64,000 nt of DNA from sequence record OZ346189.1. One strand, given 5' to 3'. Origin of the DNA: a phage. Each line of letters begins with the position of its first letter. Position 1 is the stretch's first letter. Below the pieces are notes generated by a model. The model saw only the letters and a program-made list of their open reading frames with translations, made no database searches and was not told the DNA's origin. The translations under genes and the position numbers were made by a program. Shown here one piece after another: positions 2-59,131 of the stretch.

Positions 2-325
2 GGCGTTAGTTTCAAAAATGGGAAAAAACCAGAAGCGCTTTTGAAGCGAATTTTCGAAATGTGTACGCGAGAAGGCGATTTGGTATTGGATTCATTCGGT
101 GGTTCGGGAACTACTGCTGCTGTAGCTCACAAGATGAAAAGACGTTGGATCTCAATCGAGCTAGGTGATCATTGTCATACCCATATTATTCCGCGCTTGG
201 AAAAAGTGATCGATGGTGAAGATCAAGGTGGTATTTCTAAGTCTGTAAACTGGGAAGGTGGTGGTGGCTTCCGCTATTACAAACTTACCCCGACCTTAAT
301 TGCGAAAGATAAGTCTGACCAATAA
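2..325 (+). CDS. DNA methyltransferase, C-terminal part (5' end lies upstream of window)
   Basis: Frame open from window edge; ...KPEALLKRIFEMCTREGDLVLDSFGGSGTTAAVAHKMKRRWISIE carries the AdoMet-binding D-x-F-x-G-x-G-T-T motif of beta-class N6A/N4C DNA MTases; stop TAA 323-325. Confidence 0.6.
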   Translation, partial: GVSFKNGKKPEALLKRIFEMCTREGDLVLDSFGGSGTTAAVAHKMKRRWISIELGDHCHTHIIPRLEKVIDGEDQGGISKSVNWEGGGGFRYYKLTPTLIAKDKSDQ

Positions 326-338
326 AGAGTACAATCAA

Positions 339-644
339 ATGATGAAACGTTATAAACCATACACTTTTGAAATCGATTTCGAACTTGACGATATGTTCAC
401 TGTGGAAGCTCAGGCAGTTGTCCAGTTGCCAGACCCAGAGTGCCGTGATTCTGATGTTGACTATTACGGATTTAGACAAATTACCGATGTGCATGTTTAC
501 CACAACGGTGAAGAGGTGGACTTCCACCAACTGCCAAACGATTTGCGACACTCAATTTACAAACGTGCAGCCCGTGAACTAGAGTCCTATCTGGATGCAG
601 CGACGACAGCAGCTGCATTTGCTGAAGAAGTGGGAGGTTTCTGA
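339..644 (+). CDS. hypothetical protein
   Basis: ORF track 300-644; first ATG at 339 (MMKRYKPYTFEIDF...); acidic small protein; weak SD. Confidence 0.4.
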   Translation: MMKRYKPYTFEIDFELDDMFTVEAQAVVQLPDPECRDSDVDYYGFRQITDVHVYHNGEEVDFHQLPNDLRHSIYKRAARELESYLDAATTAAAFAEEVGGF

Positions 645-1039
645 TGATTACAGGTGTGAAGGTTATCCAATACCACTTAACCAAATTGGAAGATGCTGAA
701 AAAGAGCTTGCAGAAGTTCTGAATAGTGGATATACTTTGCTATCATGCGCCTGCTCAGACACCTACGCTGTGTGGACACTTATCCGGAAGGAGGAGCCTG
801 CAGGGATCTTGGTGCCAAACCCTAAGATTATCAGTGAAGTGGATGACTGCTCTCAGGACGGCCTGTCAGAAGGCTGGGAAGTATGGGAAGGTGGTGAAAA
901 CCCTGCACCAGGTAAGTGGGTAAAATACAAACTACGTAGCGGTGCACAGCACGCTGGATACTCTGATAACCTGGACTGGAGTCATTCTTCACCGGAATCA
1001 TTGGTAAGTGCATATGATATCGTTGCTTTTCAGGAATAA
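644..1039 (+). CDS. hypothetical protein
   Basis: 131-aa ORF, start overlaps previous stop (ATGA coupling); no recognisable motif. Confidence 0.45.
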   Translation: MITGVKVIQYHLTKLEDAEKELAEVLNSGYTLLSCACSDTYAVWTLIRKEEPAGILVPNPKIISEVDDCSQDGLSEGWEVWEGGENPAPGKWVKYKLRSGAQHAGYSDNLDWSHSSPESLVSAYDIVAFQE

Positions 1040-1051
1040 GGAGAGAGTGTT

Positions 1052-1534
1052 ATGTCAGATTTTATGTGGAAAGTAGGTTATGCCTCTCCTGAAATGTGCG
1101 AGGCTTGCTTTGTAAAAATAGGCCGCGAGGATATTGACAAAGTGATCTTTAAGTTTCGTGATGTATCTGTGATCGGCAACCGAGTGCTTAAGCACTTAAA
1201 GAATCTGAAGCTCACCAAAAAGAAGTTCTTCGGACTTTTCGAAGAGAAAGTTGATGCTTGGACCCATTGCATTCAGGAAGCTAAATCTCACTACAGTGCT
1301 ATCGTTACCCCAGAACGGGTAGCCAAGATGGAAGGATTCATCAACAGCACAGAGTTTGAGTGCCTAAAGGCTGCCCTTAATAGTTATCCAAAGTGCCTCA
1401 AACACCTTGACAAGTATGTAGAAAAGGATGGGGAAATGTACCTAACCCTGGACGCATATTATGAGATGCAAGAAATTTTAAATTTAGATTTGACATTGGT
1501 ATCCACCGAGTATACAATAGGTATCCGGGTTTAA
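1052..1534 (+). CDS. hypothetical protein
   Basis: 160-aa ORF preceded by AAGGAGAG SD; followed by terminator hairpin. Confidence 0.55.
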   Translation: MSDFMWKVGYASPEMCEACFVKIGREDIDKVIFKFRDVSVIGNRVLKHLKNLKLTKKKFFGLFEEKVDAWTHCIQEAKSHYSAIVTPERVAKMEGFINSTEFECLKAALNSYPKCLKHLDKYVEKDGEMYLTLDAYYEMQEILNLDLTLVSTEYTIGIRV

Positions 1535-1540
1535 CACTAG

Positions 1541-1567
1541 GCCCTGCCCGAAAGGGTGGGGCTTTTT
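1541..1567 (+). terminator. rho-independent terminator
   Basis: GCCCTGCCC-GAAA-GGGTGGGGC stem-loop (two G-U wobbles) followed by TTTTT; near-identical copy at 12924-12951. Confidence 0.6.
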
Positions 1568-1585
1568 GCATTAGGAGACAGCAAA

Positions 1586-2350
1586 TTGAAATTCATCTAC
1601 AAAGAACACTACCACAAAGGTGTTGTGTGGAGTCTATTTGACGGGTCTGGTGGTGCAGTTATTGACTGGGCAAAAGCTGGGTACCTGTGCCTGTGCTTTA
1701 ATGCAGAAGGTGCTGACCACGGCAGTTATGCAGAGGTGATAACCGATCATCCTAACATTCACTATGTGGATTATTGGATTGACCCATGGTTCCCTCAGGA
1801 AACTTTTTGCATGTATCCAGCTCCAGACTTTATTCTTGCATTTCCTCCGTGCACGCATTTAGCGGTATCAGGTGCTGCACATTTTAAGAAAAAGCTGGCT
1901 AAGGATCCTTTGATCCAAATTAATGCTGTAAAGGATGCTCGGGTTGCGGAAGAGTTGGGAGAGATTTACGATTGCCCGTGGCATGTAGAGAATCCTGTAG
2001 GGGTTATGTCCACACTGTGGCGAAAACCTGATTACCGTTTTCATCCTTCGGATTATGGTGGGTATTTACCGGAGGATGATGTAAACCCCTGGTTTCCTGA
2101 ATTTATAGCTCCACGTGATGCCTACCCAAAAATAACTTGCGGCTGGATAGGCAATGGATTTATAATCCCGGCCACAAAACCTGTCCCGCAAATAGTTGAC
2201 GCGGTTAGCGGGTATTCCATGCAACACGCCAAGCTGGGTGGAAAGAGTGCAAGAACGAAGATGATCCGAAGCCTCACGCCACGTGGCTGGGCAAAAGCCG
2301 TATTCTTAGCAAACGAGCCTGTAGTAAGGAGCAGAATTAATGGGAAGTAA
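1586..2350 (+). CDS. C5-cytosine DNA methyltransferase-like protein
   Basis: ORF track 1556-2350 but 5' end overlaps terminator; TTG 1586 with AGGAGA SD 1573-1578; motifs FDGSGG (motif I-like), PPCT..S.AG (PC motif, Q replaced by T) and VENPVG (ENV-like). Confidence 0.45.
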   Translation: MKFIYKEHYHKGVVWSLFDGSGGAVIDWAKAGYLCLCFNAEGADHGSYAEVITDHPNIHYVDYWIDPWFPQETFCMYPAPDFILAFPPCTHLAVSGAAHFKKKLAKDPLIQINAVKDARVAEELGEIYDCPWHVENPVGVMSTLWRKPDYRFHPSDYGGYLPEDDVNPWFPEFIAPRDAYPKITCGWIGNGFIIPATKPVPQIVDAVSGYSMQHAKLGGKSARTKMIRSLTPRGWAKAVFLANEPVVRSRINGK

Positions 2351-4418
2351 ATTTATGGCATCTGCATACAACCGTTTCGGTGAGCCAAACCCGAAAGCAA
2401 TTAAGTATAAAAGTGGGGGAAGTGTGAAACGAGACTATCGTGATGAAAAAGAGGTTGAAACTGTAGAGACTGTTTTAGAAAATACTAAAATCGTCCCTGT
2501 CCCACAACAAAATATCGGTCTGATGGCTGCACAATATTTTGGTGTGCGATCAGCATTGTCCCAAGAAGACGGTGTGACAGTCACTGCAACATATTTCCCA
2601 TATTACGACCGATACGGAAATCTGTCCGGTTTCAAAAAGCGTGACTGGACTATTCCTAAAGAACAAAGGGGCCACTTCTCCGTTGTTGGCATAGTAAAGG
2701 CCAACTCCCAGATGTTTGGTCAAAAGCTGTGTGCATCTTCCAACAACCGTAAGCAGATTAACGTTTGTGAGGGAGAAGGTGATGTTATTGCAGCATGGCA
2801 GGCTGCATATCAGATACAAGTAAAAGGGATTCTCACCAACGCTAAAGCCCCGGCAAAGGTGAAGCAGTGGGCTAAAGAGGTCCAGGACGGGATCGACGCA
2901 GTTATCAACGGTGGTGATCTGGCAGGAAAACCCTGCCTGCCTTTTGTTGGAATTAACTGTGGATGTGCAAACGCAGTAGATACTTTTGCAAACAATGAGA
3001 AGTTTATCCGTAGCTATGGAACAGTTGTGCTGGCAATGGATAACGATGCAGCTAACGAGGTAGAGAAGCAAAAACACGTCATTAAAGGTGTTGAGGCCAC
3101 GCACAATATCGCAGCATTTTTGATGGCTGATAACGTTTACCACGTAGAATACCCTGGTGAAGTAAATGACCCTGACGGGGTAAAAGATATCCGTGACATG
3201 CTGAAGGCTAAAAAGCTGGAAGATATTGTCAACATGTTCCGGCACCCTGTTAAATATGTGCCTGATGCTGTGTCGGATTTAGAAGACTTCTCTATCGAGT
3301 CTTTGCGGAAAAAGACTTCCAACGGGGTAGATATCAGCGCAGAGTTCCCAAAACTGCAAAAAATGCTAAAAGGCTTGCACAAAGGGACACTCGTAATGCT
3401 TACAGGGCCATCAGGGGGCGGTAAAACAACTGTAGCTAAAAAACTGGAACATTGTATTGCAAGATACCTAATGGACCCGACATGCCCGAAGGCTGATGAC
3501 TATGAAGAGGATGATCGTCTATGTATGATCCATCTTGAGGAGGACCCAGAGGAAGCAATTAACTCCTTGTATGCAAACCAGTTAGGGTTTGATGTTAAAG
3601 AGTTTGTTGAAGATCCTAGCCAGTTTTTAACTGATCAAGAACACGCAGAGATTCACCAATCATGGGCAAAAGCTGGAAAAATCAAAGTGTTCAAACATTT
3701 CGGATCTATTCCGGTGGACGAGTTGATTACCAAGCTTAAGCAAATGGTTTGCCTGTACCATTGCCGTTATATTGTGCTGGATCACCTATCCATGGTAATT
3801 TCAGGGCTTAATGTTAAGGATGAGCGAAAAGAACTGGACATGGCTATGACTCAGCTGGCTGCGTTTTGTAAGCAGTTTAACGTGTTTATCTTGGTGATCG
3901 CTCACCTCAAACGTACAGAGATTGTGCCTCCTAAGGACAAGGATGGTAACCCGTTACCTTTCTGGTATCCTGTGCGAAAAGAGAATTTGCGAGGATCGGC
4001 GGGGCTTGAACAGTTGAGTTGGGTAGTCATAGGTGTCGAGGCCGAAGAAATGGTGGATCGTTCTCGTGGACGTGTCCGTCTGGTAGGTCTTAAAAACCGT
4101 CCAGCAAAAACTCTAGGTATTGCTGACACTTTGGTTATGGACCCGCACACAGGTAAGTTCCATGATGCCAGTAATTGGTACTGGGACAAAGAAATGCAAA
4201 TGTTTACAGACGGAGAAGGTGGGGAGGTTGTTTGGAGACCTCAGGCTATGTTTGAGGATCAGGAGCATGCAGTTGTAGAAACACCTATGGGCAAGGTTGT
4301 GGCTGATAAGGTTGTAACTCCTACTGTTAAGCCTGTTGACACGCAGGAAGACCTCCAGTACGATGATCCATCCTCTGACCCGGTCCCTGGTTTTGAGGAT
4401 GATGAAACGCCTTTTTAA
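2340..4418 (+). CDS. bifunctional primase-helicase (toprim primase + DnaB-family helicase)
   Basis: 692 aa; toprim-like VCEGEGDVIAAW, Walker A GPSGGGKTT, RecA/DnaB-like C-terminal domain; acidic C-terminal tail ...GFEDDETPF. Confidence 0.8.
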   Translation: MGSKFMASAYNRFGEPNPKAIKYKSGGSVKRDYRDEKEVETVETVLENTKIVPVPQQNIGLMAAQYFGVRSALSQEDGVTVTATYFPYYDRYGNLSGFKKRDWTIPKEQRGHFSVVGIVKANSQMFGQKLCASSNNRKQINVCEGEGDVIAAWQAAYQIQVKGILTNAKAPAKVKQWAKEVQDGIDAVINGGDLAGKPCLPFVGINCGCANAVDTFANNEKFIRSYGTVVLAMDNDAANEVEKQKHVIKGVEATHNIAAFLMADNVYHVEYPGEVNDPDGVKDIRDMLKAKKLEDIVNMFRHPVKYVPDAVSDLEDFSIESLRKKTSNGVDISAEFPKLQKMLKGLHKGTLVMLTGPSGGGKTTVAKKLEHCIARYLMDPTCPKADDYEEDDRLCMIHLEEDPEEAINSLYANQLGFDVKEFVEDPSQFLTDQEHAEIHQSWAKAGKIKVFKHFGSIPVDELITKLKQMVCLYHCRYIVLDHLSMVISGLNVKDERKELDMAMTQLAAFCKQFNVFILVIAHLKRTEIVPPKDKDGNPLPFWYPVRKENLRGSAGLEQLSWVVIGVEAEEMVDRSRGRVRLVGLKNRPAKTLGIADTLVMDPHTGKFHDASNWYWDKEMQMFTDGEGGEVVWRPQAMFEDQEHAVVETPMGKVVADKVVTPTVKPVDTQEDLQYDDPSSDPVPGFEDDETPF

Positions 4419-4480
4419 TGTTTAACAAAGAGTGGGAGGGGTAGTACAACCGCCTCCCCTTTAAGGAGAACGTTTATACT

Positions 4481-7400
4481 ATGAGTATGTGGAATTTTGA
4501 CTTTGAGGCCTCAGGTCTTCTGGACGAGGAAGATCTTTACTACCATTGTGGCCTGTTTAAAGAGTTGAATAAAAATAATTTTATGTTGTTTTTGCCTATC
4601 AATGATAGATCTCATTACAGTGAAGAGGAGGTTGAAAAAGCAAAACAATTTATGCTGGCAAAGCAAGATATCTATCCTAGCTGCTCTGTCCGTATTGCGG
4701 ATTTCAGCCAGCTTGAATGGTGGTTAACCGGGAACTCCGATTGGTCACCCACATCATTAAGTTGTCACAACTGTTTTAGTTATGACTTTATCTTGATGGA
4801 GAAGCTGTCTGGTATTCATTTTGATATGTTCCGTGATCCCAAGTGTATGGGGACAATCAATAATCATCAGGTGAACCTGTTCGACACTCTGCCAATGAGT
4901 CGTATACTATGGCCCGACAGACCGTTACCTAAAGGATGCCCTGATTCTGTATACAATCCTGTTACAAAACGTATGCAGCAGGTAGGTCCTCATGGCCTAA
5001 TGGCGTGGGGGTACGCTTTAGGAAACCAGAAGGTTAAAATTGATGACTGGAGAAATTTACCTCTGTGGAAGTATGTTGATCGTGTATTCGAGGACGTTAT
5101 CATCCAGGAGCTGCTCTGGAAAGAGCTGGTAGCGGAATCAAAAGGTGTATTCTACGGCAAATCTGACATGCAGAACTTTATGTACGATCCAGCCAAAGAG
5201 AAGCCGAAAGGGTTCAAGAAGATTACCTGGAAGAATGCATTACGCCGAGGCATGCTGCAGCACTTCCTGATGGAGCTGCAGGCCCGTCAGGGTGTATACT
5301 TCGACATAGATGGAGCTATTGCTTTACGTGACCGTTGCGATGCGTGGATGAAAGAAATCGCTGATCGTGTTGAACCACAACTACCTTTAAAAGAGCTGTC
5401 AATGTCTCAGCGGCCCAAGTTCCCTGAAAAGCCGTTTAACCAAGACGGGACAATCTCTAATAATGGTTGGAAATGGTTAAAAGATAAGCTTGGCTATCCT
5501 GTAGACATGAGTGCTTTAGAGTTCAAAGCCCCGCCTAAGCGAGCATTTACCTCTACAGGAGATGTCAGCAAGATGGGGATAAAATGGTGTGAAGAGATGG
5601 GCTGCAAAGACCCCGATAAGATGGCTGATTTCTTGAGAGGCTATATTAAGGGCACCTCCACACCACAACCCTTACCTAAAGAGCTGATGGATCAGGCAAT
5701 AAGTGATCTGCAGCAGAAGCGAATGCCTGACTGCAAGATACCTATGAAAATCAGCAATCAGGACGACATCAAGCGATACCTAATCAGTGCTGGTTGGCTC
5801 CCAACAATGTGGAGAACTAAAGATGTAACTAAAGACAGCAAGAAGAAAGCTTTACCTGATGCAGATGTTGATGCACGAGTATATGCATATATGGACGAGC
5901 TTTTGGAGTCAGAGTATTGTGACCTAATTATCAACTTCTGGAACAAAACTGATGCTAAGTTCCAGACAACCGTGCACAAGTTCCGAAGCTTTCCTAACTC
6001 CGAAAGGATTAAAAAGGAAGTATTCGGGAAAATACGTAGAAAAGCCAGGGCACTTATTACTTCTCCGCAACTGAAAGATACGTTTGGACACCTATGCCCA
6101 AATCTTGAAAAATTGAACGGAGAGATGGCTAAAGATATCGTCTTGTGGTTATCATTGCGAAACCGCAGATCGGTCCTTGATCCAATCAAGGAGGATAAGG
6201 TTGATACTGGTCTTCTTAATCACCCACGTTTGAAGATTGACCATAAGCTTCCTGCTAAAAGCTCTGGATTAACAAACACTTCCAGACAGAAACACAGTAT
6301 TTGTGCAAACATGCCTAAACCATCTCCTAAAGTGGTTATGGGTAAAGAGATGCGTAGTCTGTGGGGTGTTCCTCCGGGATACTTTGAGATCGGTATTGAC
6401 GGGTCCAACTTAGAGCAGCTTATCGGGGCTTGGGGTGCCTTTGAGTTCGACAACGGCCTGTATTATGATGTTGTAAGTAATGGCGATGCACACTGTTATT
6501 CAGGAGATACACAAATTCTCACGGAGAAAGGGTGGGTGAGGTTTGAAGATCTTGATCCGGGAACACAAGTGTTCCAGTACGATCACAACACCTCGTCAAT
6601 GAACCTTGTTACTCCATTAAATTACGTTAAGCGTAGTTATTGTGGGGATATGTATCATTTCCACAACAGTAGTGTGGATTTTATGGTTACAGATCAACAC
6701 AGGATGCTGACTGTGGATCACAGAAGCAATAAATTGTTTGAAGATTTGGCAAAAGACCTGAAAGCAGGTAAAGGGTCTAATTCAGGAAGAAGGTTTATCC
6801 ATGCGGCAGAGTTTTATGGGAATACAACCTTATCTCCTGCCCAGGTTAATTTGCTTATTGCTATTCACGATGATGGGCACTTGCATACAAATAAGGACGG
6901 CAGCATCGTGTGCAGGATTCAGGTCGGAAAGGGAAGAAAAGTTGCAACGCTTTTAGATACTTTTTCTGCTCTAAGCCTTAGTTATGTAGAGCAGAGCGGG
7001 AAAACCACAAAAGGGGGCTTACTGGCGAGAAGGTTCCAATTCCACGTTCCGTCCTGGGTATTTGAGTTTTTGGACAACAATAAGGATTTCACCTATAACC
7101 TGATGAACCTTGATAAAGAATCTAAAAACCTGTTTATAGCTTCTTTATCTAACTGGGACGGGTGGGTATCTTCCGAAGGTGGAAAGGTTGCTTACTACTC
7201 CCAGGCCGAGTGCAGGAAGAAATCTGTAGAGGTGGTGTCTGCGCTGGCTACTCAGTGTGGTTTACGGAATAATACGGTGGCGATTCACAAAAAAGGTCGT
7301 GCCGTGCAGCACAGAATCACAATTGGTAGCAAACAGAGAGCAGGGTTGCTGACACTATCTAAAGAGTCTGTCGAGGTGAGCGGTTCTTTGGTTTATTGCG

Positions 7401-7879
7401 TTACCGTCCCTTCTGGAGCAATCATTGTGAGAAGGAATGGTAAAGTGGCAGTGTGCGGTAACTGTAATAACGCCAAAGCTTACTCTTCTGTAGCAGGCAA
7501 GGAGATTTCCCGTAACGATGGTAAACCTATCACGTATGGGGTTATGTATGGGGCACAAAAAGATAAAGTTGCAGATATGCTGGACATCTCCCCAGAGTTG
7601 GGACAAAGGGTAATCGATGCACTCTGGGATGCCAACCCAGGTCTTAAGGGGCGCAAAGAGGATCTGGAGAAATTCTGGGAAGCAACAGGTAAGAAGTTTA
7701 TCTACTCTTTTGATGGTCATGCTATCTGGACCCGATCTAAACACTCTTTACTTAATGCATACCAACAAAATGGCGGTGCATCGTTGTGTGACTTAGTTGG
7801 AATACTCATGCACCACCAGATGGTGAAGCGTGGGTGGTACGATGAAGGTGTTCGTCGTATTATTTATTACCATAAATAA
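4481..7879 (+). CDS. DNA polymerase, family A (Pol I/T7 gp5-like), N-terminal and catalytic part; contains an intein; interrupted before C-terminus
   Basis: SD AAGGAGAA; motif A IDGSNLEQL, Pol I-like DAH segment, motif B SRNDGKPITYGVMYG, Q..G.A.D segment QQNGGASLCD and HDE-like WYDE near end; stop TAA 7877-7879. Confidence 0.85.
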   Translation: MSMWNFDFEASGLLDEEDLYYHCGLFKELNKNNFMLFLPINDRSHYSEEEVEKAKQFMLAKQDIYPSCSVRIADFSQLEWWLTGNSDWSPTSLSCHNCFSYDFILMEKLSGIHFDMFRDPKCMGTINNHQVNLFDTLPMSRILWPDRPLPKGCPDSVYNPVTKRMQQVGPHGLMAWGYALGNQKVKIDDWRNLPLWKYVDRVFEDVIIQELLWKELVAESKGVFYGKSDMQNFMYDPAKEKPKGFKKITWKNALRRGMLQHFLMELQARQGVYFDIDGAIALRDRCDAWMKEIADRVEPQLPLKELSMSQRPKFPEKPFNQDGTISNNGWKWLKDKLGYPVDMSALEFKAPPKRAFTSTGDVSKMGIKWCEEMGCKDPDKMADFLRGYIKGTSTPQPLPKELMDQAISDLQQKRMPDCKIPMKISNQDDIKRYLISAGWLPTMWRTKDVTKDSKKKALPDADVDARVYAYMDELLESEYCDLIINFWNKTDAKFQTTVHKFRSFPNSERIKKEVFGKIRRKARALITSPQLKDTFGHLCPNLEKLNGEMAKDIVLWLSLRNRRSVLDPIKEDKVDTGLLNHPRLKIDHKLPAKSSGLTNTSRQKHSICANMPKPSPKVVMGKEMRSLWGVPPGYFEIGIDGSNLEQLIGAWGAFEFDNGLYYDVVSNGDAHCYSGDTQILTEKGWVRFEDLDPGTQVFQYDHNTSSMNLVTPLNYVKRSYCGDMYHFHNSSVDFMVTDQHRMLTVDHRSNKLFEDLAKDLKAGKGSNSGRRFIHAAEFYGNTTLSPAQVNLLIAIHDDGHLHTNKDGSIVCRIQVGKGRKVATLLDTFSALSLSYVEQSGKTTKGGLLARRFQFHVPSWVFEFLDNNKDFTYNLMNLDKESKNLFIASLSNWDGWVSSEGGKVAYYSQAECRKKSVEVVSALATQCGLRNNTVAIHKKGRAVQHRITIGSKQRAGLLTLSKESVEVSGSLVYCVTVPSGAIIVRRNGKVAVCGNCNNAKAYSSVAGKEISRNDGKPITYGVMYGAQKDKVADMLDISPELGQRVIDALWDANPGLKGRKEDLEKFWEATGKKFIYSFDGHAIWTRSKHSLLNAYQQNGGASLCDLVGILMHHQMVKRGWYDEGVRRIIYYHK
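6494..7462 (+). mobile_element. intein with LAGLIDADG-type homing endonuclease domain inside DNA polymerase
   Basis: 323 in-frame codons between Pol motifs A and B; starts CYSGDTQIL (block A), TDQH (block B), LLIAIHDDGH and LFIASLSNWDGW (LAGLIDADG-like), ends ...LVYCVTV...VAVCGN followed by Cys +1. Confidence 0.7.
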
Positions 7880-8377
7880 CATTGTGGCTTCATAGAGTAA
7901 TCTATGTCGAATAACCTCTTTAACTGCGGGAAGCCTAAACCTTATGGCAAGGTAATCCGCAACGAAGCGCTCAAAAGAGCGAACGCTCAGAGGCCATTCC
8001 GAAAGGAAGTAGACCAGCAAGTGCGGTCGAAATGGGAGGATTCCTGTGGTTGCTTATCATAGGAATATGAGATGGTCCGATCCTACGTGAAAACGTATGG
8101 CTATGCACGTAATGGTGCGGGGTAGCTTAACGACCTACCTGAACTATTGGATGAGTACCAACTTCAAGTGCCTGACACACCGAAGTATAAGACTGTGTAC
8201 ACCTTCGACACAATTGAAGAACTGGAAGCATTTAAGGCAGAGCAGGAAGCCAAACTTCATGTGTTCGACGGTCATAAGTACAAAAAGGCACGCAAGGATG
8301 AGGACGGAAACGAAGTGGTTGACAGAGACGGAAACACGGTGTACGATCCTATCCTGAACGATGACGGAAAGCTTGAA
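7847..8377 (+). other. intervening sequence in DNA polymerase gene (candidate group I intron; boundaries approximate)
   Basis: In-frame stops at 7877, 7898 and 8060 separate ...GWYDE from the polymerase C-terminus encoded in the same frame from about 8378; no large ORF inside. Confidence 0.4.
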
Positions 8378-8503: not shown

Positions 8504-8552
8504 TGTAAACTATCAACACATGGAAGTGTTGTTGAGCAAAGAGGAGACTTTT

Positions 8553-9252: not shown

Positions 9253-9262
9253 AGGAGGTAGG

Positions 9263-9634: not shown

Positions 9635-9659
9635 CAAGAAGTAAGGTTAGATGTAAGAT
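9631..9659 (+). promoter_or_regulatory. sigma70-like promoter
   Basis: TTGACA 9631-9636, 17-nt spacer, TAAGAT 9654-9659; upstream of CDS 9711. Confidence 0.5.
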
Positions 9660-49843: not shown

Positions 49844-49902
49844 TATTATAGATTATCTAATACTATTAGTCAACACAAAAATTACCTATCGCTGTGATAG
49901 GA

Positions 49903-50886: not shown

Positions 50887-51086
50887 TATTTAGCTCTCCT
50901 TGTTTTAATTTTGGAAATTTCGTCTGGGTTTATGTTGGCCTTAAATGCAAGGTATCTGTTGAACATGTCAGAGCACATATCTTGGGTGATCCTAGAGGCA
51001 TACACTAGCTTACCTCCTAGATCATACACCTCTAGCCAGTCACCGTATCTGACTACAGGATCGCCACCTTTAGAACATCTGCCCAT
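50886..51086 (-). CDS. hypothetical protein
   Basis: 66 aa. Confidence 0.4.
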   Translation of the reverse strand: MGRCSKGGDPVVRYGDWLEVYDLGGKLVYASRITQDMCSDMFNRYLAFKANINPDEISKIKTRRAK

Positions 51087-51087
51087 T

Positions 51088-51681
51088 TCAAATACCTTCT
51101 AAAAATTTTCCTATTTTATACCAGCTATTAGCGGTATAGTCAACACTGACCTTTAACTCCTCGAATTGCTCATAAGGCGTATCTTTTAGGATTTTAATAA
51201 CTTCAGGTCGTGAAGCGAATTGGTTCAGGTATTCATGCCTGTCGTCAATTATAACATCTACAGCCACATTCCCTTTGAAATGTGTGGCGTAGAAGCCGTG
51301 GCCCTGGGTGTGATCGTCCAGATCCATAAAATCACTGGTCCAACGCTTTAAGAACCTTGATTTAGATGCAAGGTGACCTTTCTTGCATACCGAGATAAAT
51401 GCAAGCTTGTGACCACGAGCCACCAAATCTTTCATAACCTCAATAGCCCCCTCTTCAGGCTTAAGGAAGTCGTAGAGGAACGGATCACTCCAGAAATCAA
51501 AAGGTCCTATGATGTTTTCTTTGGGACGATCAGGCCAATACTTTGACAGATCGTAGTACATTAGCCCATTAGAAGGTTTAGCTACTGTCTTACTGGCTGG
51601 ACCATACAAACGCTCCAACCACTCCCACCATGCTGTTCCTGAATCTACCAGTGTCAGATCTACATCAATTCCGATTAACAT
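51088..51681 (-). CDS. HAD-family 5'(3')-deoxyribonucleotidase
   Basis: 197 aa; HAD motif I GIDVDLTLVD (D-x-D-x-T). Confidence 0.5.
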   Translation of the reverse strand: MLIGIDVDLTLVDSGTAWWEWLERLYGPASKTVAKPSNGLMYYDLSKYWPDRPKENIIGPFDFWSDPFLYDFLKPEEGAIEVMKDLVARGHKLAFISVCKKGHLASKSRFLKRWTSDFMDLDDHTQGHGFYATHFKGNVAVDVIIDDRHEYLNQFASRPEVIKILKDTPYEQFEELKVSVDYTANSWYKIGKFLEGI

Positions 51682-52289
51682 TCTTCTTGGGCCTCTTTAG
51701 CATCAATATACTTGCACACAATCTCCGATGCACACTCCCAAGGTGCACCTTCAGGGTTTACAACATCAAACTCAACCCCTTTTATTCCGTTCTTTTCCAG
51801 ACTTAGATAGGTTCTGGAATCATTTCCCCAGTCATATCCTACACGGTGAATACGGAACAACAACAGATCTCCACCTGTGCTGTATGCGTACTCGCTAAGG
51901 CATGCCAGCTCCTCTTTGAATCCCCCATCGGAGTAAACAATAACCCCTTTACCTTCAGGGAAATCTTTCTTCAAAGATGCGACTGAGGCTTTACCGAAAG
52001 CATCTTCACCAAAGATAGGTTTAATCAGATTTTCACTACAATGGATCATCCATTCTCGCGGAGAAACATGCTTGCCGTCTATCATTAAGAAAGGGCAAGG
52101 CTCTTCTTTGTAGTGGCGGTCATAAAGTGCATTCCAGAGTTGAGGAGTTACACCAGCTGCCTTAATTGCCACACTGAAGAGCATTTCCTTAACCTCACGG
52201 TGGTGTGAGTTAGGAATAGCTTCCAACAAGAGATCTGCAATGTGATCCTTACCACTGCTGGGTGGGGCGTTAAGAACAATAATATCCAT
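51675..52289 (-). CDS. deoxynucleoside monophosphate kinase
   Basis: 204 aa; P-loop NAPPSSGKDHIADLL as in phage dNMP kinases. Confidence 0.5.
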   Translation of the reverse strand: MDIIVLNAPPSSGKDHIADLLLEAIPNSHHREVKEMLFSVAIKAAGVTPQLWNALYDRHYKEEPCPFLMIDGKHVSPREWMIHCSENLIKPIFGEDAFGKASVASLKKDFPEGKGVIVYSDGGFKEELACLSEYAYSTGGDLLLFRIHRVGYDWGNDSRTYLSLEKNGIKGVEFDVVNPEGAPWECASEIVCKYIDAKEAQEEC

Positions 52290-52492
52290 TAAAAACCTCC
52301 GTGGTATTCTTCAACTGCATCAATAATACTTTTACACTTATCTACCAGCTCGTTAGCCACTACAGCATCGTCTTCCCAAACAGCCTCCTCAATCTGATCA
52401 AGCAATGATCGCATCTTACTCATCATTTCTGGGATAAAGTTTTCTGAAAAGCTGTCTGGAATTGTTAACTCTAGTGTCATTTCGGTCTCCAA
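52289..52492 (-). CDS. acidic hypothetical protein
   Basis: 67 aa; about 30% Asp/Glu. Confidence 0.4.
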   Translation of the reverse strand: METEMTLELTIPDSFSENFIPEMMSKMRSLLDQIEEAVWEDDAVVANELVDKCKSIIDAVEEYHGGF

Positions 52493-52507
52493 TCATACTA
52501 TGCGTTA

Positions 52508-52966
52508 TTAGAAGTTTGTTTTTACACGTCCCTTCTCATCAACCTCGTTGTTAGCTAAAAGCGTTACAAAGTCTGTGAAACGAACATGAAGAACCCTTTT
52601 CTTATCAAGGTATCCTAAAGCCACCCCTGAGAAATTTAGCATCAAAGGGGCTAAAGAAGCTCTGGCACTGAAATGCTGTTGTTCTACCCTTCCAACACCC
52701 TTAGTGTAGGATGGGTTAAGATTGTAAGTTCTGAATCCCAGTTTTGTTGGAGCTTTAGAATTAAAAACGACTTTATAGCGTTTCTTACTCAACTTATGCT
52801 CCAGGATAAGCATTCCCTTATCACCTTTGATAAGTTGAAAATCTGTAAAGTGCTCTTTTAAGACGAAAGGTAGTGCCAGTCCCATCGCCTGTCCTCTTTG
52901 TACCGCTGTCTCACCAAAAGCTTTTGCATCAGTAAGTTCTTTGGTCAAGTCTATGCTTTTGATCAT
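52508..52966 (-). CDS. hypothetical protein
   Basis: 152 aa. Confidence 0.4.
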   Translation of the reverse strand: MIKSIDLTKELTDAKAFGETAVQRGQAMGLALPFVLKEHFTDFQLIKGDKGMLILEHKLSKKRYKVVFNSKAPTKLGFRTYNLNPSYTKGVGRVEQQHFSARASLAPLMLNFSGVALGYLDKKRVLHVRFTDFVTLLANNEVDEKGRVKTNF

Positions 52967-53777
52967 ACCTGGTCTCCAAAATGTATTGTAGTTCTTTCTT
53001 ACCTATACTCTTCATTCCAGCAGTCTTACCTGCTTCTTCTTGAAAAGAAGAATAGCATTCAGCAAACACTCTGTCAACACCGTTAACTAAAGATTTTATG
53101 AAATATGTTGATTCTTCAGATTTTGGGTCATCATCCCCCAATACTTTTCCAGCATTATACCCAACACGTCTTACACAGAAGTCGTAGTCATCTGGTGTGC
53201 TAAAAGAAAATAACTTATTCTCTCCAATCTCTACAGGATCCCTATTGCACGCCTTTTTCTCCCAAATTTGGAAAACACATGGCACGTCATAAGGTTTGCC
53301 ATTAAGTAAAAACGAATTCTTAGGGCACCTTTCGCTGTAGACAAGGTGCATCGACATGTCCAGTTTGTTTGCAAAAAATATTTTTTCAAATGTCCGTGGC
53401 AAGATGAAGGCTATAGCCCCTCCAAGCTCTAGCAATGATGCACAATGGTTAAAGAATTTGCAAGCTAAGGATGAATTCTTGCCAAATGGTGGGTTACCTA
53501 TGAAGACATCTGCCTTGGGATGCACCTCCAAGAAGTTTGCCTGAATGCACGGTGTTGGTCCTTCAAATTCAGGATCTGGTACTAAATCGTACGACAGTAT
53601 CTCTGAAAATAGTTTTGAAAAAGAACCCCTTCCAGCAGAAGGCTCAACGTATGCACAATTCCCATACTTATCTTTTACTTTACCAACAAGATATTCTGCA
53701 TACTCAGGGTTTGTGTAGTATTTGTCGTTGGACTCTTTCTTGCTCAAAGTGCCTCCAAAAGGAAAAGGGAGGCGCAA
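52929..53777 (-). CDS. DNA N6-adenine methyltransferase
   Basis: 282 aa; motif I VEPSAGRGSF and motif IV FIGNPPFG. Confidence 0.7.
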   Translation of the reverse strand: MRLPFPFGGTLSKKESNDKYYTNPEYAEYLVGKVKDKYGNCAYVEPSAGRGSFSKLFSEILSYDLVPDPEFEGPTPCIQANFLEVHPKADVFIGNPPFGKNSSLACKFFNHCASLLELGGAIAFILPRTFEKIFFANKLDMSMHLVYSERCPKNSFLLNGKPYDVPCVFQIWEKKACNRDPVEIGENKLFSFSTPDDYDFCVRRVGYNAGKVLGDDDPKSEESTYFIKSLVNGVDRVFAECYSSFQEEAGKTAGMKSIGKKELQYILETRYDQKHRLDQRTY

Positions 53778-53792
53778 GCCTCCCTATAATTG

Positions 53793-54776
53793 TTAGATTA
53801 TCTGAATCAGGGTATTTTTCATTTCTTCTCTGGTGCGGATGTTGTTACGGTCACGAACAACAGATCCACAACCTTCGCAGCGGTATGTTTTAAATGCACT
53901 CAGTTGAGTATACGCCAAAGCTTCTTCCTCGTGAAGGTGTTCTCCACCACAGCGTGGGCAACGAACTTTTGGCTCCTCATCCTGGTAGTACAATGACATG
54001 TTGGGGTGCTGCTTAGCAAACGGGCGAGCCAGCAAATACAGGCCTTCCAGAGATAGGATATCGCCAACATTGTACTCCCGCATCTGTTTAAACGCCTCAA
54101 GATCACCGTGAACACACTTGATCCACATTTCAAATGTGTGGTCAATCAGTTTCTGTCGGGCAAGTTGGAAGTATTTGCATGCATACTCCAAAGTGTTTGC
54201 ATTCAAACGGAATGCCTTCTTGATCATTTTAAGGGTGTCAACCTCTTTGTAGGGGCTTGTTGGAGGCAATCCGTGAAATGCAAATCGTTGGTTGGCCCAC
54301 CCACAGTCAAAACCTGAATTGTGGGCTACTGCGACATCACATTTATCCAGATAATACCACAAATCCTGAATCAATTCGAGATCATTGTGAATATCCTCAT
54401 CCCACATTTTGTAATCAGGAAGAGCGCAGTCAACCACACTAGGACTGTCTAACCACTTACCTGCGAAAGTTAGCATGTAGGGCATAATTTCAATACCGCA
54501 GGTTTGAATGTTGGTCTTATAGTGCCCAAAGAACCAGCCGTTTGTTGGAGATGTCTCTGTATCATACACCCAAACTTTAGCACCTTTGTGCTCTTCAAGG
54601 AAGCGCTCCGTTGCTTCTCCTACAATCTCTGACATATTCTCTTGTGCACGTTTAAGCTGTAGTCGGATCCAGCTCTCACGTGACTCACGGCCTAAAAATT
54701 CACGAGCAATTTGTCTATTAGTGTATCCCTGTTGCTTTAGTGTTAAAATTTGCTCAAGAGTTAACTTTGTCATCAT
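53793..54776 (-). CDS. DnaQ-like 3'-5' exonuclease with C-terminal zinc ribbon
   Basis: 327 aa; Exo I VWVYDTETSP, Exo III-like AVAHNSGFD; CPRCGG...CEGCG. Confidence 0.5.
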   Translation of the reverse strand: MMTKLTLEQILTLKQQGYTNRQIAREFLGRESRESWIRLQLKRAQENMSEIVGEATERFLEEHKGAKVWVYDTETSPTNGWFFGHYKTNIQTCGIEIMPYMLTFAGKWLDSPSVVDCALPDYKMWDEDIHNDLELIQDLWYYLDKCDVAVAHNSGFDCGWANQRFAFHGLPPTSPYKEVDTLKMIKKAFRLNANTLEYACKYFQLARQKLIDHTFEMWIKCVHGDLEAFKQMREYNVGDILSLEGLYLLARPFAKQHPNMSLYYQDEEPKVRCPRCGGEHLHEEEALAYTQLSAFKTYRCEGCGSVVRDRNNIRTREEMKNTLIQII

Positions 54777-54788
54777 CGTTAAGATTCC

Positions 54789-55010
54789 TTAGTAAAACTG
54801 AAGAATGTCTTTTAAAGCGAAGTCACGATATTCGCCCTTGTCTACATCGAAGGCACGCATCAACCACTGCTCTTCTTTATGATACTCTGTAGAGCCAAAC
54901 CATAAATTAGGCTCAGTAACGCAGCGATCTGCAACAACACCTTTCCAGTTACGGTATTTCATCCTGATCAGGACTGAGTCGCAAGGATTGAATACCTTTT
55001 TCATCCCCAT
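54789..55010 (-). CDS. hypothetical protein
   Basis: 73 aa; 5' end overlaps Endo VII-like gene, true start uncertain. Confidence 0.3.
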   Translation of the reverse strand: MGMKKVFNPCDSVLIRMKYRNWKGVVADRCVTEPNLWFGSTEYHKEEQWLMRAFDVDKGEYRDFALKDILQFY

Positions 55011-55554
55011 AGAAATCTCTCTCCTCAGTTTTCTTTATAAACTCCTGCATGTAGGACTCAATAGCCTCATGCTTGGTGCACTCTGGATTAATGACAAGAT
55101 TGAGATCTGATTCTGCTCGTGCAATGATCGTAGCTTTAGAGCATCTCCTCAAGAACTTTGTCATATCATCTCTGTAGTTTTTGTGGAGCGGGAAGTCGCT
55201 GTAGTCTTTCTCCAAATAGTCAGCCATCCGGCGCAACGCCTCTGATAAACTGCAATCTGTATACTCGTTACAGTATTTCATCCAGTATTTAAGCACATAC
55301 CCCTCAAAGGTATTAGTGCATTGTGACAAAACACCCCTGCAACGACCAGTCAGATGGTCATGATCCAAACAAGGCTTACGAAGTGGCTCGCACAAGATCG
55401 GATCAAGACCATCCTGCTCCTCTGACAATTCTTTTCGAAAGTTGGCTATGTCCTTAGAATCTTTTAGCCACCCGCTATGAACGGGGGCTTTGACAGCTTT
55501 CTTTCTTATTTTACGCTTTGCGATAACCCCTCCAGATGCGCCCTGCCTATCCAA
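54949..55554 (-). CDS. endonuclease VII-like junction-resolving nuclease
   Basis: 201 aa; CLDHDHLTGRCRGVLSQCTNTFEG resembles the T4 endo VII catalytic/Zn region (..DHDH..G..RG.LC..CN...G). Confidence 0.55.
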   Translation of the reverse strand: MDRQGASGGVIAKRKIRKKAVKAPVHSGWLKDSKDIANFRKELSEEQDGLDPILCEPLRKPCLDHDHLTGRCRGVLSQCTNTFEGYVLKYWMKYCNEYTDCSLSEALRRMADYLEKDYSDFPLHKNYRDDMTKFLRRCSKATIIARAESDLNLVINPECTKHEAIESYMQEFIKKTEERDFYGDEKGIQSLRLSPDQDEIP

Positions 55555-56135
55555 TAAGCATCGGCGAGATCGGCCTTACCTTGTACCAAATTGATCCCAT
55601 CTAGGAACCCAGGTTCAGATACTTCGCAGGCCTTAACCATCAACTTTTTATCCATCGTAACAGGTTTCTTCACAGTATGCTCTTTACCTGTCTTTTTGTC
55701 AAGCTTTTTCTTCTCCTCAAAAGCAAGTTCCTCAGGAAGATGACTACGAGCAAACTTTTTGGCAGTTGTTGGTGTCACGGTGTGGACCTTAAACAGGCCG
55801 TCATTTTCACAATCAGCTAAAGCATCCCAAAGCATAACTTCAAGACCGTAAAACAACCCAGCCAGTTCGCGTGTGGCATCCCCGCGTGATCCAAAGGAAA
55901 GCCCTTCCATAACCACGGTGTCAACGCCGTGCGTGTGGATGTAATATCTGACCTGTTTGCAGATCCAGTCAATACGCTCAGCAGCTGTTGCAAAAGAAAC
56001 CGTCCCTGGTTTCTTCTCTTTTGCAGATGAGCTTTGAGTTCGTAACACAACCTTATGAACAGGCTTTCCATCGTCCCATACAACGCAAGCTGTGTGTGTC
56101 AACGACTGGTCTATGGATAATAGACGCTCTCTCAT
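55506..56135 (-). CDS. RuvC-like Holliday junction resolvase
   Basis: 209 aa; LSIDQS (Asp in strand 1), VVMEGLSFGS (Glu), DAYWIGRAHL (Asp), RNase-H-fold resolvase pattern. Confidence 0.5.
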   Translation of the reverse strand: MRERLLSIDQSLTHTACVVWDDGKPVHKVVLRTQSSSAKEKKPGTVSFATAAERIDWICKQVRYYIHTHGVDTVVMEGLSFGSRGDATRELAGLFYGLEVMLWDALADCENDGLFKVHTVTPTTAKKFARSHLPEELAFEEKKKLDKKTGKEHTVKKPVTMDKKLMVKACEVSEPGFLDGINLVQGKADLADAYWIGRAHLEGLSQSVK

Positions 56136-56464
56136 GCTTCCTCGTCCTCCTCTCCTTCATCAGGAGCATAAGCCTTATCTTTGAACAAGACGAGAGAGCA
56201 AAGCTTAACATCTGTTTCCACACTGGTGAACATGCATAACCGCTCGCCCTCAATCAGCTCACAATCCTCTTTTAAAACAGCAGACCATACACGGTCATCT
56301 GCGTAATCATCCGTGTACAGGATGTATGAAATGGTGTCATCTTCATACAACCGCCACATACCTGTGGCAACAACGAATGTATTTTTTGTTTTAAGTGTCC
56401 CTGTTGTGTGATCATCCTCAAAAACAGCTTCCATAATTGCGTTATCTACAGCATTTTTAGTCAT
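56132..56464 (-). CDS. acidic hypothetical protein
   Basis: 110 aa; poly-Glu C-terminus. Confidence 0.4.
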   Translation of the reverse strand: MTKNAVDNAIMEAVFEDDHTTGTLKTKNTFVVATGMWRLYEDDTISYILYTDDYADDRVWSAVLKEDCELIEGERLCMFTSVETDVKLCSLVLFKDKAYAPDEGEEDEEA

Positions 56465-57603
56465 CAGATTGCTCCAACATTTCTAAGAACGTTAACAAGT
56501 TTTGTCTGGTCATTAAATGTCCGCTTCATATACAAACAGTCAAAAATTATACTCATCCATTGACCTACGGAAATTCTACGATCAATACCATTGAAGTCAG
56601 TATACTTAACAACACCTTTCGGGAACCACTTCTTGTACTGATCAATAATAGCCACCCACATCTCCTTTGGAGTGCTGCACTGAGACAGTAGGTAGAATGC
56701 TGAGGCATCCCCGAACTTACCCTTACCGATAAGTCCTTGATACGGCTTGATGTTGTCAGCAGAGTCACCACACAGCATTTGGTATCCGAAGAACAGCATC
56801 CCGTAACCGCCAACCTCTCCATTAGGCTTCATGAAGATGTTCCCCATACCGTTATCGATCAGCATAGGGGTTTCCCTTACAAAATCTCCCTTATCGTTTC
56901 GCATGGGATCGAACACAAGCCCCGGTAGTGTTCTTTGGTCCTTATCAATAGAGATAATAAACTTGTTGAACTTACCTGTTTTTTGGTAGTGGTTCCAACC
57001 TTCAAATTGCTGGATAGCTAACCAGTCGTCAGCCTCGATACCGTTGATCACTTGAGCATTATACTGCTTTTGGAGATACTGTCTTGCATCTCCAAGCAGC
57101 AGTGGTCTAAGAGTATTGTTACGGTTGGCTTTATATCTTTCCGGCATGGGAAGATCTAGTCTGAAATTACCTGTGCCTCCAAGTACCCCCACGCACCGAT
57201 CTTCCGGAATACCGAGATAATTAAGGACTGCATTAGCTTTACACTTAATTGTGTGCAAGCAGTTCTCTACAGGATCAGGGGTTTGGATATCCAAGACATC
57301 GAAATCTTCTCGTGTCCACGGAATAAACTCCTTGCCAGCCTTTTTACATGCAGCTTCACGGTTGGTATTCTCAGCTTTTAACCAACCACCAACGGTGTTC
57401 TTCTGCCGCCCCCAGAACTCTGTTCGTGTTTTAAACATCTTCTTACGTCCGGAGGCTTTGTGTGTTACCTCAATTGTCCTTTTTTCACAACTTGCTGCAG
57501 CTTGATATGCAACCTGATCGAAGTCATAATAAACTATAGCGTCAGGTTCAAGAAGATCAGCTAGACAATCTATGGACTCAATAAGTGGATATTCTCTACT
57601 CAA
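56464..57603 (-). CDS. FEN-like 5'-3' exonuclease (tentative)
   Basis: 379 aa; NGIEADDWLA and CGDSADNIKPYQGLIGKG resemble the acidic metal-binding segments of flap endonucleases. Confidence 0.4.
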   Translation of the reverse strand: MSREYPLIESIDCLADLLEPDAIVYYDFDQVAYQAAASCEKRTIEVTHKASGRKKMFKTRTEFWGRQKNTVGGWLKAENTNREAACKKAGKEFIPWTREDFDVLDIQTPDPVENCLHTIKCKANAVLNYLGIPEDRCVGVLGGTGNFRLDLPMPERYKANRNNTLRPLLLGDARQYLQKQYNAQVINGIEADDWLAIQQFEGWNHYQKTGKFNKFIISIDKDQRTLPGLVFDPMRNDKGDFVRETPMLIDNGMGNIFMKPNGEVGGYGMLFFGYQMLCGDSADNIKPYQGLIGKGKFGDASAFYLLSQCSTPKEMWVAIIDQYKKWFPKGVVKYTDFNGIDRRISVGQWMSIIFDCLYMKRTFNDQTKLVNVLRNVGAI

Positions 57604-57904
57604 AGACCCTCCTGTTAGTTATTCTGCAAGATGGTTGGATGCTGTAATGAAATGCATCATCACTCTCTGCAATAAGTGACTCAACATCCCAATACTTTTC
57701 AAAAAGGAACGGATTAGACCCCCAGTGGTGGGTTATTTTCATCAATGAGTCTGGTAGCAGATAGCCACAGATCTTAATTACATCACCAGGTTGAATTGTG
57801 TTTTCATAGAGGTTGCTTTCCTTCTTCAGAATAATACCTTTATGATTCTCGTTTGCATACAACTGGACAATATCTTTATCTTCAACAATAAAAATTTTAA
57901 GCAT
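57596..57904 (-). CDS. hypothetical protein
   Basis: 102 aa. Confidence 0.4.
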   Translation of the reverse strand: MLKIFIVEDKDIVQLYANENHKGIILKKESNLYENTIQPGDVIKICGYLLPDSLMKITHHWGSNPFLFEKYWDVESLIAESDDAFHYSIQPSCRITNRRVFE

Positions 57905-57963
57905 GTCTAGTTCTCCTAGTTTATAAATATCTGACTGATAATATCAGATTAATAACACTTTTG

Positions 57964-58260
57964 TCAAGACTTTTTAGTCTTTCTTGGAGAGCTTTTTGTT
58001 GATCTTTTCCTTTTGTGGTAGATTCCAAGTGCAGCGTTTTCTTGGGCGCACGTTTTAACAGTTCTCAGAGAAGAACTTTCAGCTTTAGGCAGGTTTAACT
58101 CCCACCAACCGAGCCAGTAAAGTTCTGATTCCGACAGCTGCTCAGATTCAGCCTTCCGATACAATGATTGCATACCTCTAATGATGTCGTCCAGAGGTGT
58201 ATCGAATACAAAAGCTGTCTTATCAAATTTCTCTTTTACAGGTTTCTTAGCCATGCTCAC
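57964..58260 (-). CDS. hypothetical protein with basic C-terminus
   Basis: 98 aa; C-terminal KRKRSTKSSPRKTKKS. Confidence 0.4.
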   Translation of the reverse strand: MSMAKKPVKEKFDKTAFVFDTPLDDIIRGMQSLYRKAESEQLSESELYWLGWWELNLPKAESSSLRTVKTCAQENAALGIYHKRKRSTKSSPRKTKKS

Positions 58261-59131
58261 CTCTCACACAATCATCCACTGACTTCATAAACTCTTGCAC
58301 CCAAAGTGCCCCTATTTGAGGAACTATGGCGTTACCGAAGCCTTTGTGGCGAGACAATCCCATTGGGGTGGATAGCCCATCAACCAACAAGGGAATGCCG
58401 GGTTCAGGAAGTTTACGCCATTTTCCGTCTCGGCATAGATACTGTCTTGTATGCTCCCACACCCGTAATACATCCTCACCTGCTCCCACAGATTCCCAGG
58501 ACTTAATGACTTCCTGCCAGTTGCTAAGCGTTGTTGCTTGCGCCTTTCCATCGCTTCCTGAGATCTGCACCCTACCTGAGTTACCGTAGGGGTTAACCAC
58601 GTTGCTAACTGCCCCGAAGTAAAGTCGTTCGCGGCGGTGCGGGGCGTTGAGGATTGCAGCATTAAGTATGGAAGCCCCGAAGCTGTAACCAGCGTTTTCC
58701 ATTTCATTCTGCATATCGTCGAGCCATCCGGATTCAATCGCTTTTGCAACCTGCTCTCCAAACATGAACTCAGGTTTAAGCTGTTTAACGAGCCGGAGGT
58801 ATGTTGGTGCAAGATGTCTTGGGTCAAATTTTCCACGTTGCTTACCTGCTTGAGAGAAAGGTTGGCAGCACGGAGATCCTGTGCATACCGACCAAGTTTC
58901 TGGAATGCCAGCAAGTTTCAAGGCCAAAGGCCATCCACCTATACCAGCGAAGAAGTGCCACTGTGTGAAACCTCTAAGATCTTCTACAGTAACCTCTGTA
59001 ATAGAACGATCATCCACCTCGCCTTGAGGAAGTAGTCCTAAAGATATTAGATTCTTCAACCAAGCAACTGCATCTTTATCATTGTCATTGTAGTATACCA
59101 CACTTAATTCTCCAAATACTGATGTATCCAA
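58247..59131 (-). CDS. DNA C5-cytosine methyltransferase
   Basis: 294 aa; motif I FFAGIGGW, motif IV GSPCCQPFSQAGK (PCQ), RRERLYFGAV, motif X GNAIVPQ. Confidence 0.7.
   Translation of the reverse strand: MDTSVFGELSVVYYNDNDKDAVAWLKNLISLGLLPQGEVDDRSITEVTVEDLRGFTQWHFFAGIGGWPLALKLAGIPETWSVCTGSPCCQPFSQAGKQRGKFDPRHLAPTYLRLVKQLKPEFMFGEQVAKAIESGWLDDMQNEMENAGYSFGASILNAAILNAPHRRERLYFGAVSNVVNPYGNSGRVQISGSDGKAQATTLSNWQEVIKSWESVGAGEDVLRVWEHTRQYLCRDGKWRKLPEPGIPLLVDGLSTPMGLSRHKGFGNAIVPQIGALWVQEFMKSVDDCVRGEHG

Follow-up and report, generated by a model that had tools for sequence, protein, structure and literature searches.

Five Methyltransferase Genes in a Vequintavirus Replication Region

Five methyltransferase genes (M1 to M5; Table 1) were analysed in a 64,000-nucleotide stretch of phage DNA (sequence record OZ346189.1), the whole of which is referred to here as the window. 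A previous examination of the letters and translated reading frames (the sequence-only reading) had described five orphan methyltransferases of at least three types, jointly giving the phage genome broad anti-restriction protection. All five open reading frames (ORFs) were recovered by translation at the positions given there, with the motifs attributed to them, apart from M5, which carries PCCQ rather than PCQ, and a motif scan of every ORF of at least 70 amino acids (aa) on both strands yielded no sixth candidate. Pfam, PHROG and fold evidence together placed all five among methyltransferase-type genes, and three types could be told apart, namely beta-class amino-methyltransferases, gamma-class amino-methyltransferases and C5-cytosine methyltransferases. 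Classification by hidden Markov models (HMMs) succeeded for part of the set: M1 (PF01555) and M5 (PF00145) scored above the cut-offs, whereas M2, M3 and M4 had no above-threshold Pfam or NCBIfam match but did match PHROG families.

The supposed phage origin was borne out by nucleotide matches. Blocks 1-12000, 30000-50000 and 50000-62000 of the window were 95-99% identical to more than 100 rV5-like myoviruses of Escherichia (genus Vequintavirus), with the BASEL phage Bas48 CarlMeissner, pangalan, Alma and HdK5 as the top relatives. Genes are arranged as in the half of Vequintavirus genomes devoted to replication and nucleotide metabolism, and run on the plus strand up to ∼28 kb and on the minus strand beyond. 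On these matches, the window is assigned to the early/replication region of a Vequintavirus, an rV5-like myovirus of E. coli. No tRNA genes were found in the window by ARAGORN; rV5 reportedly encodes several. Long stretches of many records labelled "Campylobacter phage" (MG0656xx; host C. jejuni) matched this E. coli Vequintavirus at 95-100% identity, which points to mislabelling or contamination in that submission.

All five genes are located within the replication, recombination and nucleotide-metabolism modules, adjoining genes for a primase/helicase, a DnaQ-like exonuclease, EndoVII and a 5′ exonuclease. Their neighbours comprise proteins of unknown function, the primase/helicase, ClpP, the DnaQ-like exonuclease and an HNH endonuclease, and the adjacent cognate endonuclease that would define a restriction-modification (RM) system is not among them. 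The HNH gene adjoining M5 was ruled out as its cognate restriction enzyme, as it is also present in the M5-less relatives Bas49 and Bas51, and the gene that accompanies M4 homologues in bacteria (see below) has no counterpart in the window. Judged by gene content, the five methyltransferases are solitary ("orphan") in the window, as the sequence-only reading had it.

The genes differ in their distribution. Proteins at least 90% identical were present in 87 phage records for M1, 117 for M2, 119 for M3, 121 for M4 and 4 for M5. By these counts, M2, M3 and M4 belong to the genus core, and M1 is a common accessory gene, carried by ∼73% of relatives and absent from about a quarter. Relatives' annotations list the genes as putative N6-adenine or Dcm-like/C5 methyltransferases, and the set of five was already known in the sense that its members are annotated as methyltransferases in more than 100 deposited Vequintavirus genomes.

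Table 1. Positions of the methyltransferase genes, associated features and bacterial M4-partner genes.
Feature	Position	Strand	Description
M1	2-325	+	C-terminal 107 aa of a beta-class N6/N4 amino-methyltransferase (441 aa in full); truncated at the window edge
M2	1586-2350	+	minimal C5-cytosine-methyltransferase-like protein (254 aa); immediately precedes and overlaps the primase/helicase gene
M3	37968-38501	-	177-aa NPPY adenine methyltransferase; orthologue of the GATC (Dam-like) enzyme of Bas51
M4	52929-53747	-	272-aa gamma-class adenine methyltransferase with C-terminal target-recognition-like domain; ORF extends to 53777
M5	58247-59101	-	284-aa C5-cytosine methyltransferase, phage/prophage family, non-canonical N-terminal layout; rare accessory gene
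M5-carrying insertion	58255-59124		870 bp, gene-sized; missing from relatives that lack M5, for example Bas49 and Bas51
HNH homing-endonuclease gene	59104-59619	-	phrog_5200 HNH endonuclease (1e-71); adjoins M5; also delimited as 59104-59550
ORF just 3′ of M1	300-644	+	phrog_4240 (function unknown)
DNA polymerase gene	4481-8503	+	interrupted twice relative to Bas48 (925 aa)
In-frame polymerase insert	∼6494-7465		∼324 aa, after polymerase residue 671; probable intein
Group I intron	7864-8099		Rfam RF00028
Resumed polymerase codons	8150-8503		last 117 codons
Putative glycosidase gene	36215-36739	-	phrog_13467 (function unknown)
Gene 3′ of M4	52508-52966		152 aa
ORF two genes from the M5 insertion	57596-57904	-	102 aa; phrog_14449 "transposase"
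M4-partner gene, bacterial locus L012	4805-5404
M4-partner gene, bacterial locus L015	3788-4438
M4-partner gene, bacterial locus L016	1951-2577
M4-partner gene, bacterial locus L017	1848-2498
M4-partner gene, bacterial locus L018	3788-4471

Adenine Methylation and the Enzymes M3, M1 and M4

M3 differs from bas51_0176 of the Vequintavirus Bas51 by a single substitution, V174A (176/177 residues identical), and matches phrog_799, "DNA methyltransferase" (8e-67). Its motifs YVTPEW (X), LEPCRNSASG (I) and ITNPPY (IV) follow the gamma-class order, and all matches of M3 and M4 to curated Pfam and NCBIfam HMMs (Eco57I, N6_Mtase, EcoRI_methylase, Dam) remained below the cut-offs. Mutations D69G, D79G and T83P in an N6 adenine methyltransferase of Bas51 abolish defence by retrons Asa1 and Squ1, and the enzyme is toxic upon expression in E. 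coli (PMC12548924). Native nanopore sequencing of Bas51 revealed N6-methyladenine (m6A) at GATC, which was nearly gone in T83P phage (PMC12548924). The numbers of m6A sites at GATC, GTAC and other positions, which come from Bas51 and not from the window phage, were 1405, 509 and 576 in the wild type and 35, 511 and 349 in T83P (PMC12548924 supplement). Three N6-adenine methyltransferases are annotated in Bas51, and D69, D79 and T83 occur together in bas51_0176 alone; because of this, and because the window protein is nearly identical to it, M3 corresponds to the Bas51 GATC enzyme and by orthology with that experimentally defined protein is a GATC adenine methyltransferase. The methylation of virion DNA foreseen in the sequence-only reading is likewise found in this near-identical phage, at both GATC and GTAC (PMC12548924). 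A second Bas51 gene, annotated as a glycosidase, is shared with the window (173/174 identical; no Pfam match), and its R87* mutation also relieves retron-Asa1 defence (PMC12548924).

The almost complete loss of GATC methylation in the M3 mutant means that host Dam cannot compensate on phage DNA. GATC is frequent in the window (366 sites; observed/expected 1.07) and shows no avoidance; GTAC is mildly depleted (0.70) and CTAG strongly (0.51). That Dam barely methylates the phage (35 versus 1405 sites) favours an explanation in which the core enzymes M2, M3 and M4 mainly serve phage DNA metabolism rather than anti-restriction, by marking replicated DNA, avoiding MutHLS at unmethylated GATC, timing packaging or recombination, or allowing phage nucleases to discriminate self from host. 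The location of all the genes within replication, recombination and nucleotide-metabolism modules points the same way, as does the strict conservation of M2, M3 and M4 across ∼120 genomes despite the RM sensitivity of the family. We nevertheless regard it as unlikely that this is their main function, given that T83P and other M3 mutants plaque like the wild type when no retron is present; a metabolic role would in any case be compatible with site-specific anti-restriction.

Methylation of GTAC was unchanged in the M3 mutant, and another enzyme must therefore write this mark. Bas51 carries orthologues of M1, M2, M3 and M4 and none of M5, and we infer that the GTm6AC writer is M1 or M4, since Bas51 has both genes. 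No sequence-based discriminator between the two was found, and literature searches returned nothing on the choice; the rV5 genome paper contained nothing on methylation, and the Druantia and ARMADA papers added nothing on phage methyltransferases.

The M1 fragment carries DSFGGSGTT (motif I, FGGSGT) and the C-terminal tail, and matched PF01555 (N6_N4_Mtase) with an E value of 5.5e-18 (66.2 bits; cut-off 26.7). It is 92% identical to residues 335-441 of Bas48 gene 0070, and this full-length orthologue scored 146.5 bits against the same model. Only the motif I part of M1 lies inside the window, and the motif order was read from the Bas48 orthologue, in which YIDPPF (around residue 72) and DSFGGSGTT (around residue 364) give the beta-class arrangement (IV, target-recognition region, I). 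The ORF just 3′ of M1 had a weak match (4e-5) to phrog_1573, "DNA methyltransferase".

M4, the other candidate for GTAC, contains YYTNPE (X), VEPSAGRGSF (I) and IGNPPFG (IV) in this order and matches phrog_5172 (function unknown; 4e-129). The start given in Table 1 is the likely true one according to relatives' annotation and homologue alignments. An AlphaFold model based on 27 homologues was confident (pLDDT 92), and over its full length, including the C-terminal domain, it aligned best with the DNA enzymes M.BseCI, MmeI, CamA and M.TaqI (228-251 residues), having the two-domain fold of such enzymes in the predicted structure. In bacteria, homologues of M4 are directly followed, and often overlapped, by a conserved gene encoding 199-227 aa (HGxxFE...DI...SIK), whose product had no Pfam, NCBIfam or PDB match. 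An IS1595-family transposase gene was present around the cassette in three related loci, type I RM genes together with an IS1595 gene in one, and neither in one. The M4 homologue and its partner look like a mobile type II RM pair, with the partner as a candidate uncharacterised type II restriction endonuclease, and such a pairing supports a DNA substrate for M4. No homologue of the partner was found in the window by tblastn, so the phage M4 is solitary. The 152-aa gene 3′ of M4 was considered as a partner endonuclease and rejected: a single BLASTP comparison with the Poseidonibacter partner gave an E value of 0.002, unsupported by multiple alignment and tblastn.

Not all of the five need be DNA methyltransferases. 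M4 could be an RNA m6A enzyme of the METTL5/PH1948 type, and its catalytic domain is structurally closest to METTL5-type rRNA m6A enzymes; M2 could be inactive or use another cofactor, like the phage carboxymethyltransferase CmoX. For M4, the full-length alignment to DNA enzymes, the pairing of its bacterial homologues with a conserved candidate endonuclease gene in two-gene units, some of them next to type I RM genes, and a family shared with the DNA enzyme M3 all argue against an RNA substrate. As to M2, its similarity to CmoX is no greater than to ordinary C5 methyltransferases, neither CmoA nor a ligase is encoded in the window, and the RM sensitivity of these phages argues against dense hypermodification. 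Taken together, this alternative seems quite improbable.

The C5-Type Enzymes M2 and M5

M2 displays the motifs FDGSGG, PPCT and VENP. It did not itself match any Pfam or NCBIfam model (the PF00145 gathering score was not reached), whereas two homologues of ∼55% identity passed PF00145 over motifs I-IV with 24.7 and 28.5 bits against a threshold of 22. In PHROG it belongs with phrog_757, "DNA methyltransferase" (5e-87). Cys89 of the PPC motif and Glu135 of the ENP motif were invariant in 28 sequences, and the protein has a C5-methyltransferase fold with this catalytic Cys and Glu. The family is large, comprising 3,317 proteins in a metagenome search and matches in 1,481 phage records, some of them from Drexlerviridae and Klebsiella siphoviruses. 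From its fold, family membership and catalytic residues, M2 is predicted to be a C5-cytosine enzyme.

M5 is predicted to be another C5-cytosine enzyme, on the same three kinds of evidence. It matched PF00145 (3e-20; 73.3 bits, cut-off 22) over motifs IV-VIII only, and M.HhaI with an E value of 4e-13. The motifs FAGIGG, SPCCQ (Cys89), GEQV (Glu126) and GNAIVPQ were recognised, the latter three being invariant in 14 homologues; the likely true start again follows relatives' annotation and homologue alignments. The description of M5 as a canonical enzyme had to be abandoned. In the BLASTP alignment with M.HhaI, M5 lacks 36 residues (HhaI residues 34-69) that bear motifs II and III between motifs I and IV, and it thus departs from the canonical order I-II-III-IV. 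Every member of the family has instead a conserved N-terminal block of ∼45 residues (YYNEWDKxAAxWL...VDERSITEV), which resembles HhaI motif II (YSNEWDKYA), and position 20 of the NCBIfam dcm model aligns from M5 residue 8. A rearranged (permuted) core, with motifs II-III placed before motif I, is a possible explanation of this layout. The comparison of an N-terminal profile (46 columns) with M.HhaI was not significant (9 residues, YSNEWDKYA; 3 bits; rank 7 of 2001 against shuffles), hhalign of the M5 N-terminus against the M2 family was uninformative, and N-terminal fragments alone gave no PF00145 match.

M5 was shared at ≥99% identity with only four phage records, beyond which identity dropped to 58%, in unrelated Salmonella phages. 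By blastn against EmilHeitz, the flanks of the M5-carrying insertion were 96-99% identical and its 870 bp were replaced by 13 bp. The insertion sits between the HNH homing-endonuclease gene and the next gene, and its junctions keep the stop/start overlap ATGGCTAA. The HNH gene is conserved in relatives, with the last five codons differing between genomes with and without the insertion. Comparison of these genomes marks M5 as a gene-sized cassette that was gained recently, next to the HNH homing-endonuclease gene.

This history raises the possibility that recombination around homing-endonuclease genes has spread M5, and perhaps also M1, as essentially selfish or neutral cargo of little adaptive value to this phage. 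The exact gene-sized insertion abutting the HNH gene, with replacement of its last five codons, fits such an origin, as do the restriction of M5 to 4 of ∼120 relatives, the distance to its next kin, the absence of M1 from about a quarter of relatives, and the abundance of mobile elements in this part of the genome, where the polymerase gene holds an intein-like insert and a group I intron. However, M5 keeps all of its catalytic residues and translational coupling with its neighbours, as expected of an expressed functional gene, and related enzymes are common in many phage groups, suggesting a selectable function. We therefore view the cargo explanation as conceivable though doubtful.

The first interruption of the DNA polymerase gene is in frame, with a weak Hint-domain match (PF13403; E 5.5e-5, below cut-off) at its start, and is probably an intein; the second is the group I intron, which scored 64.7 bits (gathering score 50). 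The 102-aa ORF near M5 matched its "transposase" family at 5e-69.

Role of the Methyltransferases and Comparison with Known Systems

We consider it likely that the five solitary enzymes methylate replicated phage DNA at specific short sites, with a narrow, site-specific benefit rather than a general shield. They would be expressed alongside the replication and nucleotide-metabolism genes and act on newly replicated phage DNA, M3 writing Gm6ATC, M1 or M4 writing GTm6AC, and M2 and M5 methylating cytosine sites. Since GTAC methylation in Bas51 is independent of M3, M1 or M4 is active as well. The probable benefit would lie in safeguarding phage DNA from enzymes of natural hosts that cleave GATC, GTAC or the C5 sites when these are unmethylated, and from MutH-type nicking as well. 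Retron triggering and toxicity would be the costs of the set; M3 is a demonstrated liability in the form of its Bas51 orthologue, which triggers two retrons and is toxic in E. coli.

The broad anti-restriction protection proposed in the sequence-only reading did not withstand comparison with published data. Such a role is suggested by the presence of three classes of methyltransferase, several genes in all and none with an endonuclease partner, and by at least two marks (GATC and GTAC) on the virion DNA of a near-identical phage. Each enzyme, however, masks its own short site only, and GAATTC, GATATC and AGACC sites are present in the window, unprotected. Furthermore, efficiency-of-plating data from the BASEL study, in which the tested phages included Bas48 with all five genes, showed Vequintavirinae to be exceptionally susceptible to RM systems and largely refute a joint shield. 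Among Drexlerviridae, the same study found that restriction resistance did not follow in any simple way from methyltransferase genes. Any protection would be site-specific only, and a broad one is most improbable. The number of methyltransferase genes does not, then, predict restriction resistance, as this phage group is among the most RM-sensitive of coliphages.

Several observations also weigh against the site-specific role that we favour. No protection was apparent against the RM systems assayed in the BASEL study. The T83P mutant of Bas51 plaques normally on a host without the retron (PMC12548924), so that laboratory plaque formation does not require M3. The methylation counts belong to Bas51, the cytosine-methylation activity of M2 and M5 in Vequintavirus is a prediction, and there is the likeness of the M4 catalytic domain to METTL5-type enzymes. 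M2 has only ∼45 residues between motif VIII (the RDAY region) and the motif IX-like RSLTPRG, where a target-recognition domain would be expected, and it ends soon after RSLTPRG with no recognisable motif X.

Little in the gene set is new, given that the genes were annotated already and that the M3 orthologue has been characterised as a GATC enzyme and retron trigger. Compared with C5 methyltransferases of the M.HhaI and DNMT3 type (PF00145), M2 is only 254 aa long, with a short VIII-IX interval, no clear motif X and no Pfam match, and M5 has its conserved 45-aa N-terminal extension in place of motifs II-III between I and IV. We raise, tentatively and as the less probable outcome, that the two C5-type genes stand for undescribed architectures: a segment-swapped Rossmann core in M5 and the thousands of relatives it has in phages and prophages, and in M2 a minimal enzyme of ∼230-255 aa with virtually no target-recognition domain and no motif X, carried by ∼1,500 phage genomes and invisible to Pfam, whose product may be 5mC at a very short motif or something else.

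M4 shares 15-18% sequence identity with M.TaqI, M.BseCI and CamA; with 272 aa it is much shorter than these enzymes (382-547 aa), it reaches no Pfam threshold, and GTAC is a candidate site. M3 resembles the alpha-class Dam enzymes of E. coli and T4 (PF02086) and the small phage Dam (PF05869) in that a solitary enzyme places m6A at GATC. It differs from them in its 177 aa and gamma-type order X-I-NPPY, with no PF02086 match (E up to 0.1) and a sub-threshold score for PF05869 (19 bits; cut-off 28). M3 is Dam-like in its product without belonging to the Dam family. Its closest known counterpart is the retron-Asa1/Squ1 trigger of Bas51 (PMC12548924), which it matches in predicted Gm6ATC writing and in the conserved residues D69, D79 and T83, the counterpart being a trigger of type II-A retrons and toxic to E. 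coli.

At the level of the whole set, the window corresponds to rV5 and the BASEL Vequintaviruses (Bas48 CarlMeissner, MZ501054; Bas51 WalterGehring, MZ501111), which have the same methyltransferase genes in the same order and context and depart from it in nothing essential. Beyond M3, protein identities to Bas51 are 270/272 for M4, 253/254 for M2 and 103/107 for the M1 fragment; Bas51 differs in having no M5, and some other relatives, MaxTheCat among them, have no M1. Bas48 has an M5 that is 99.6% identical and, like the window, combines M1 and M5.

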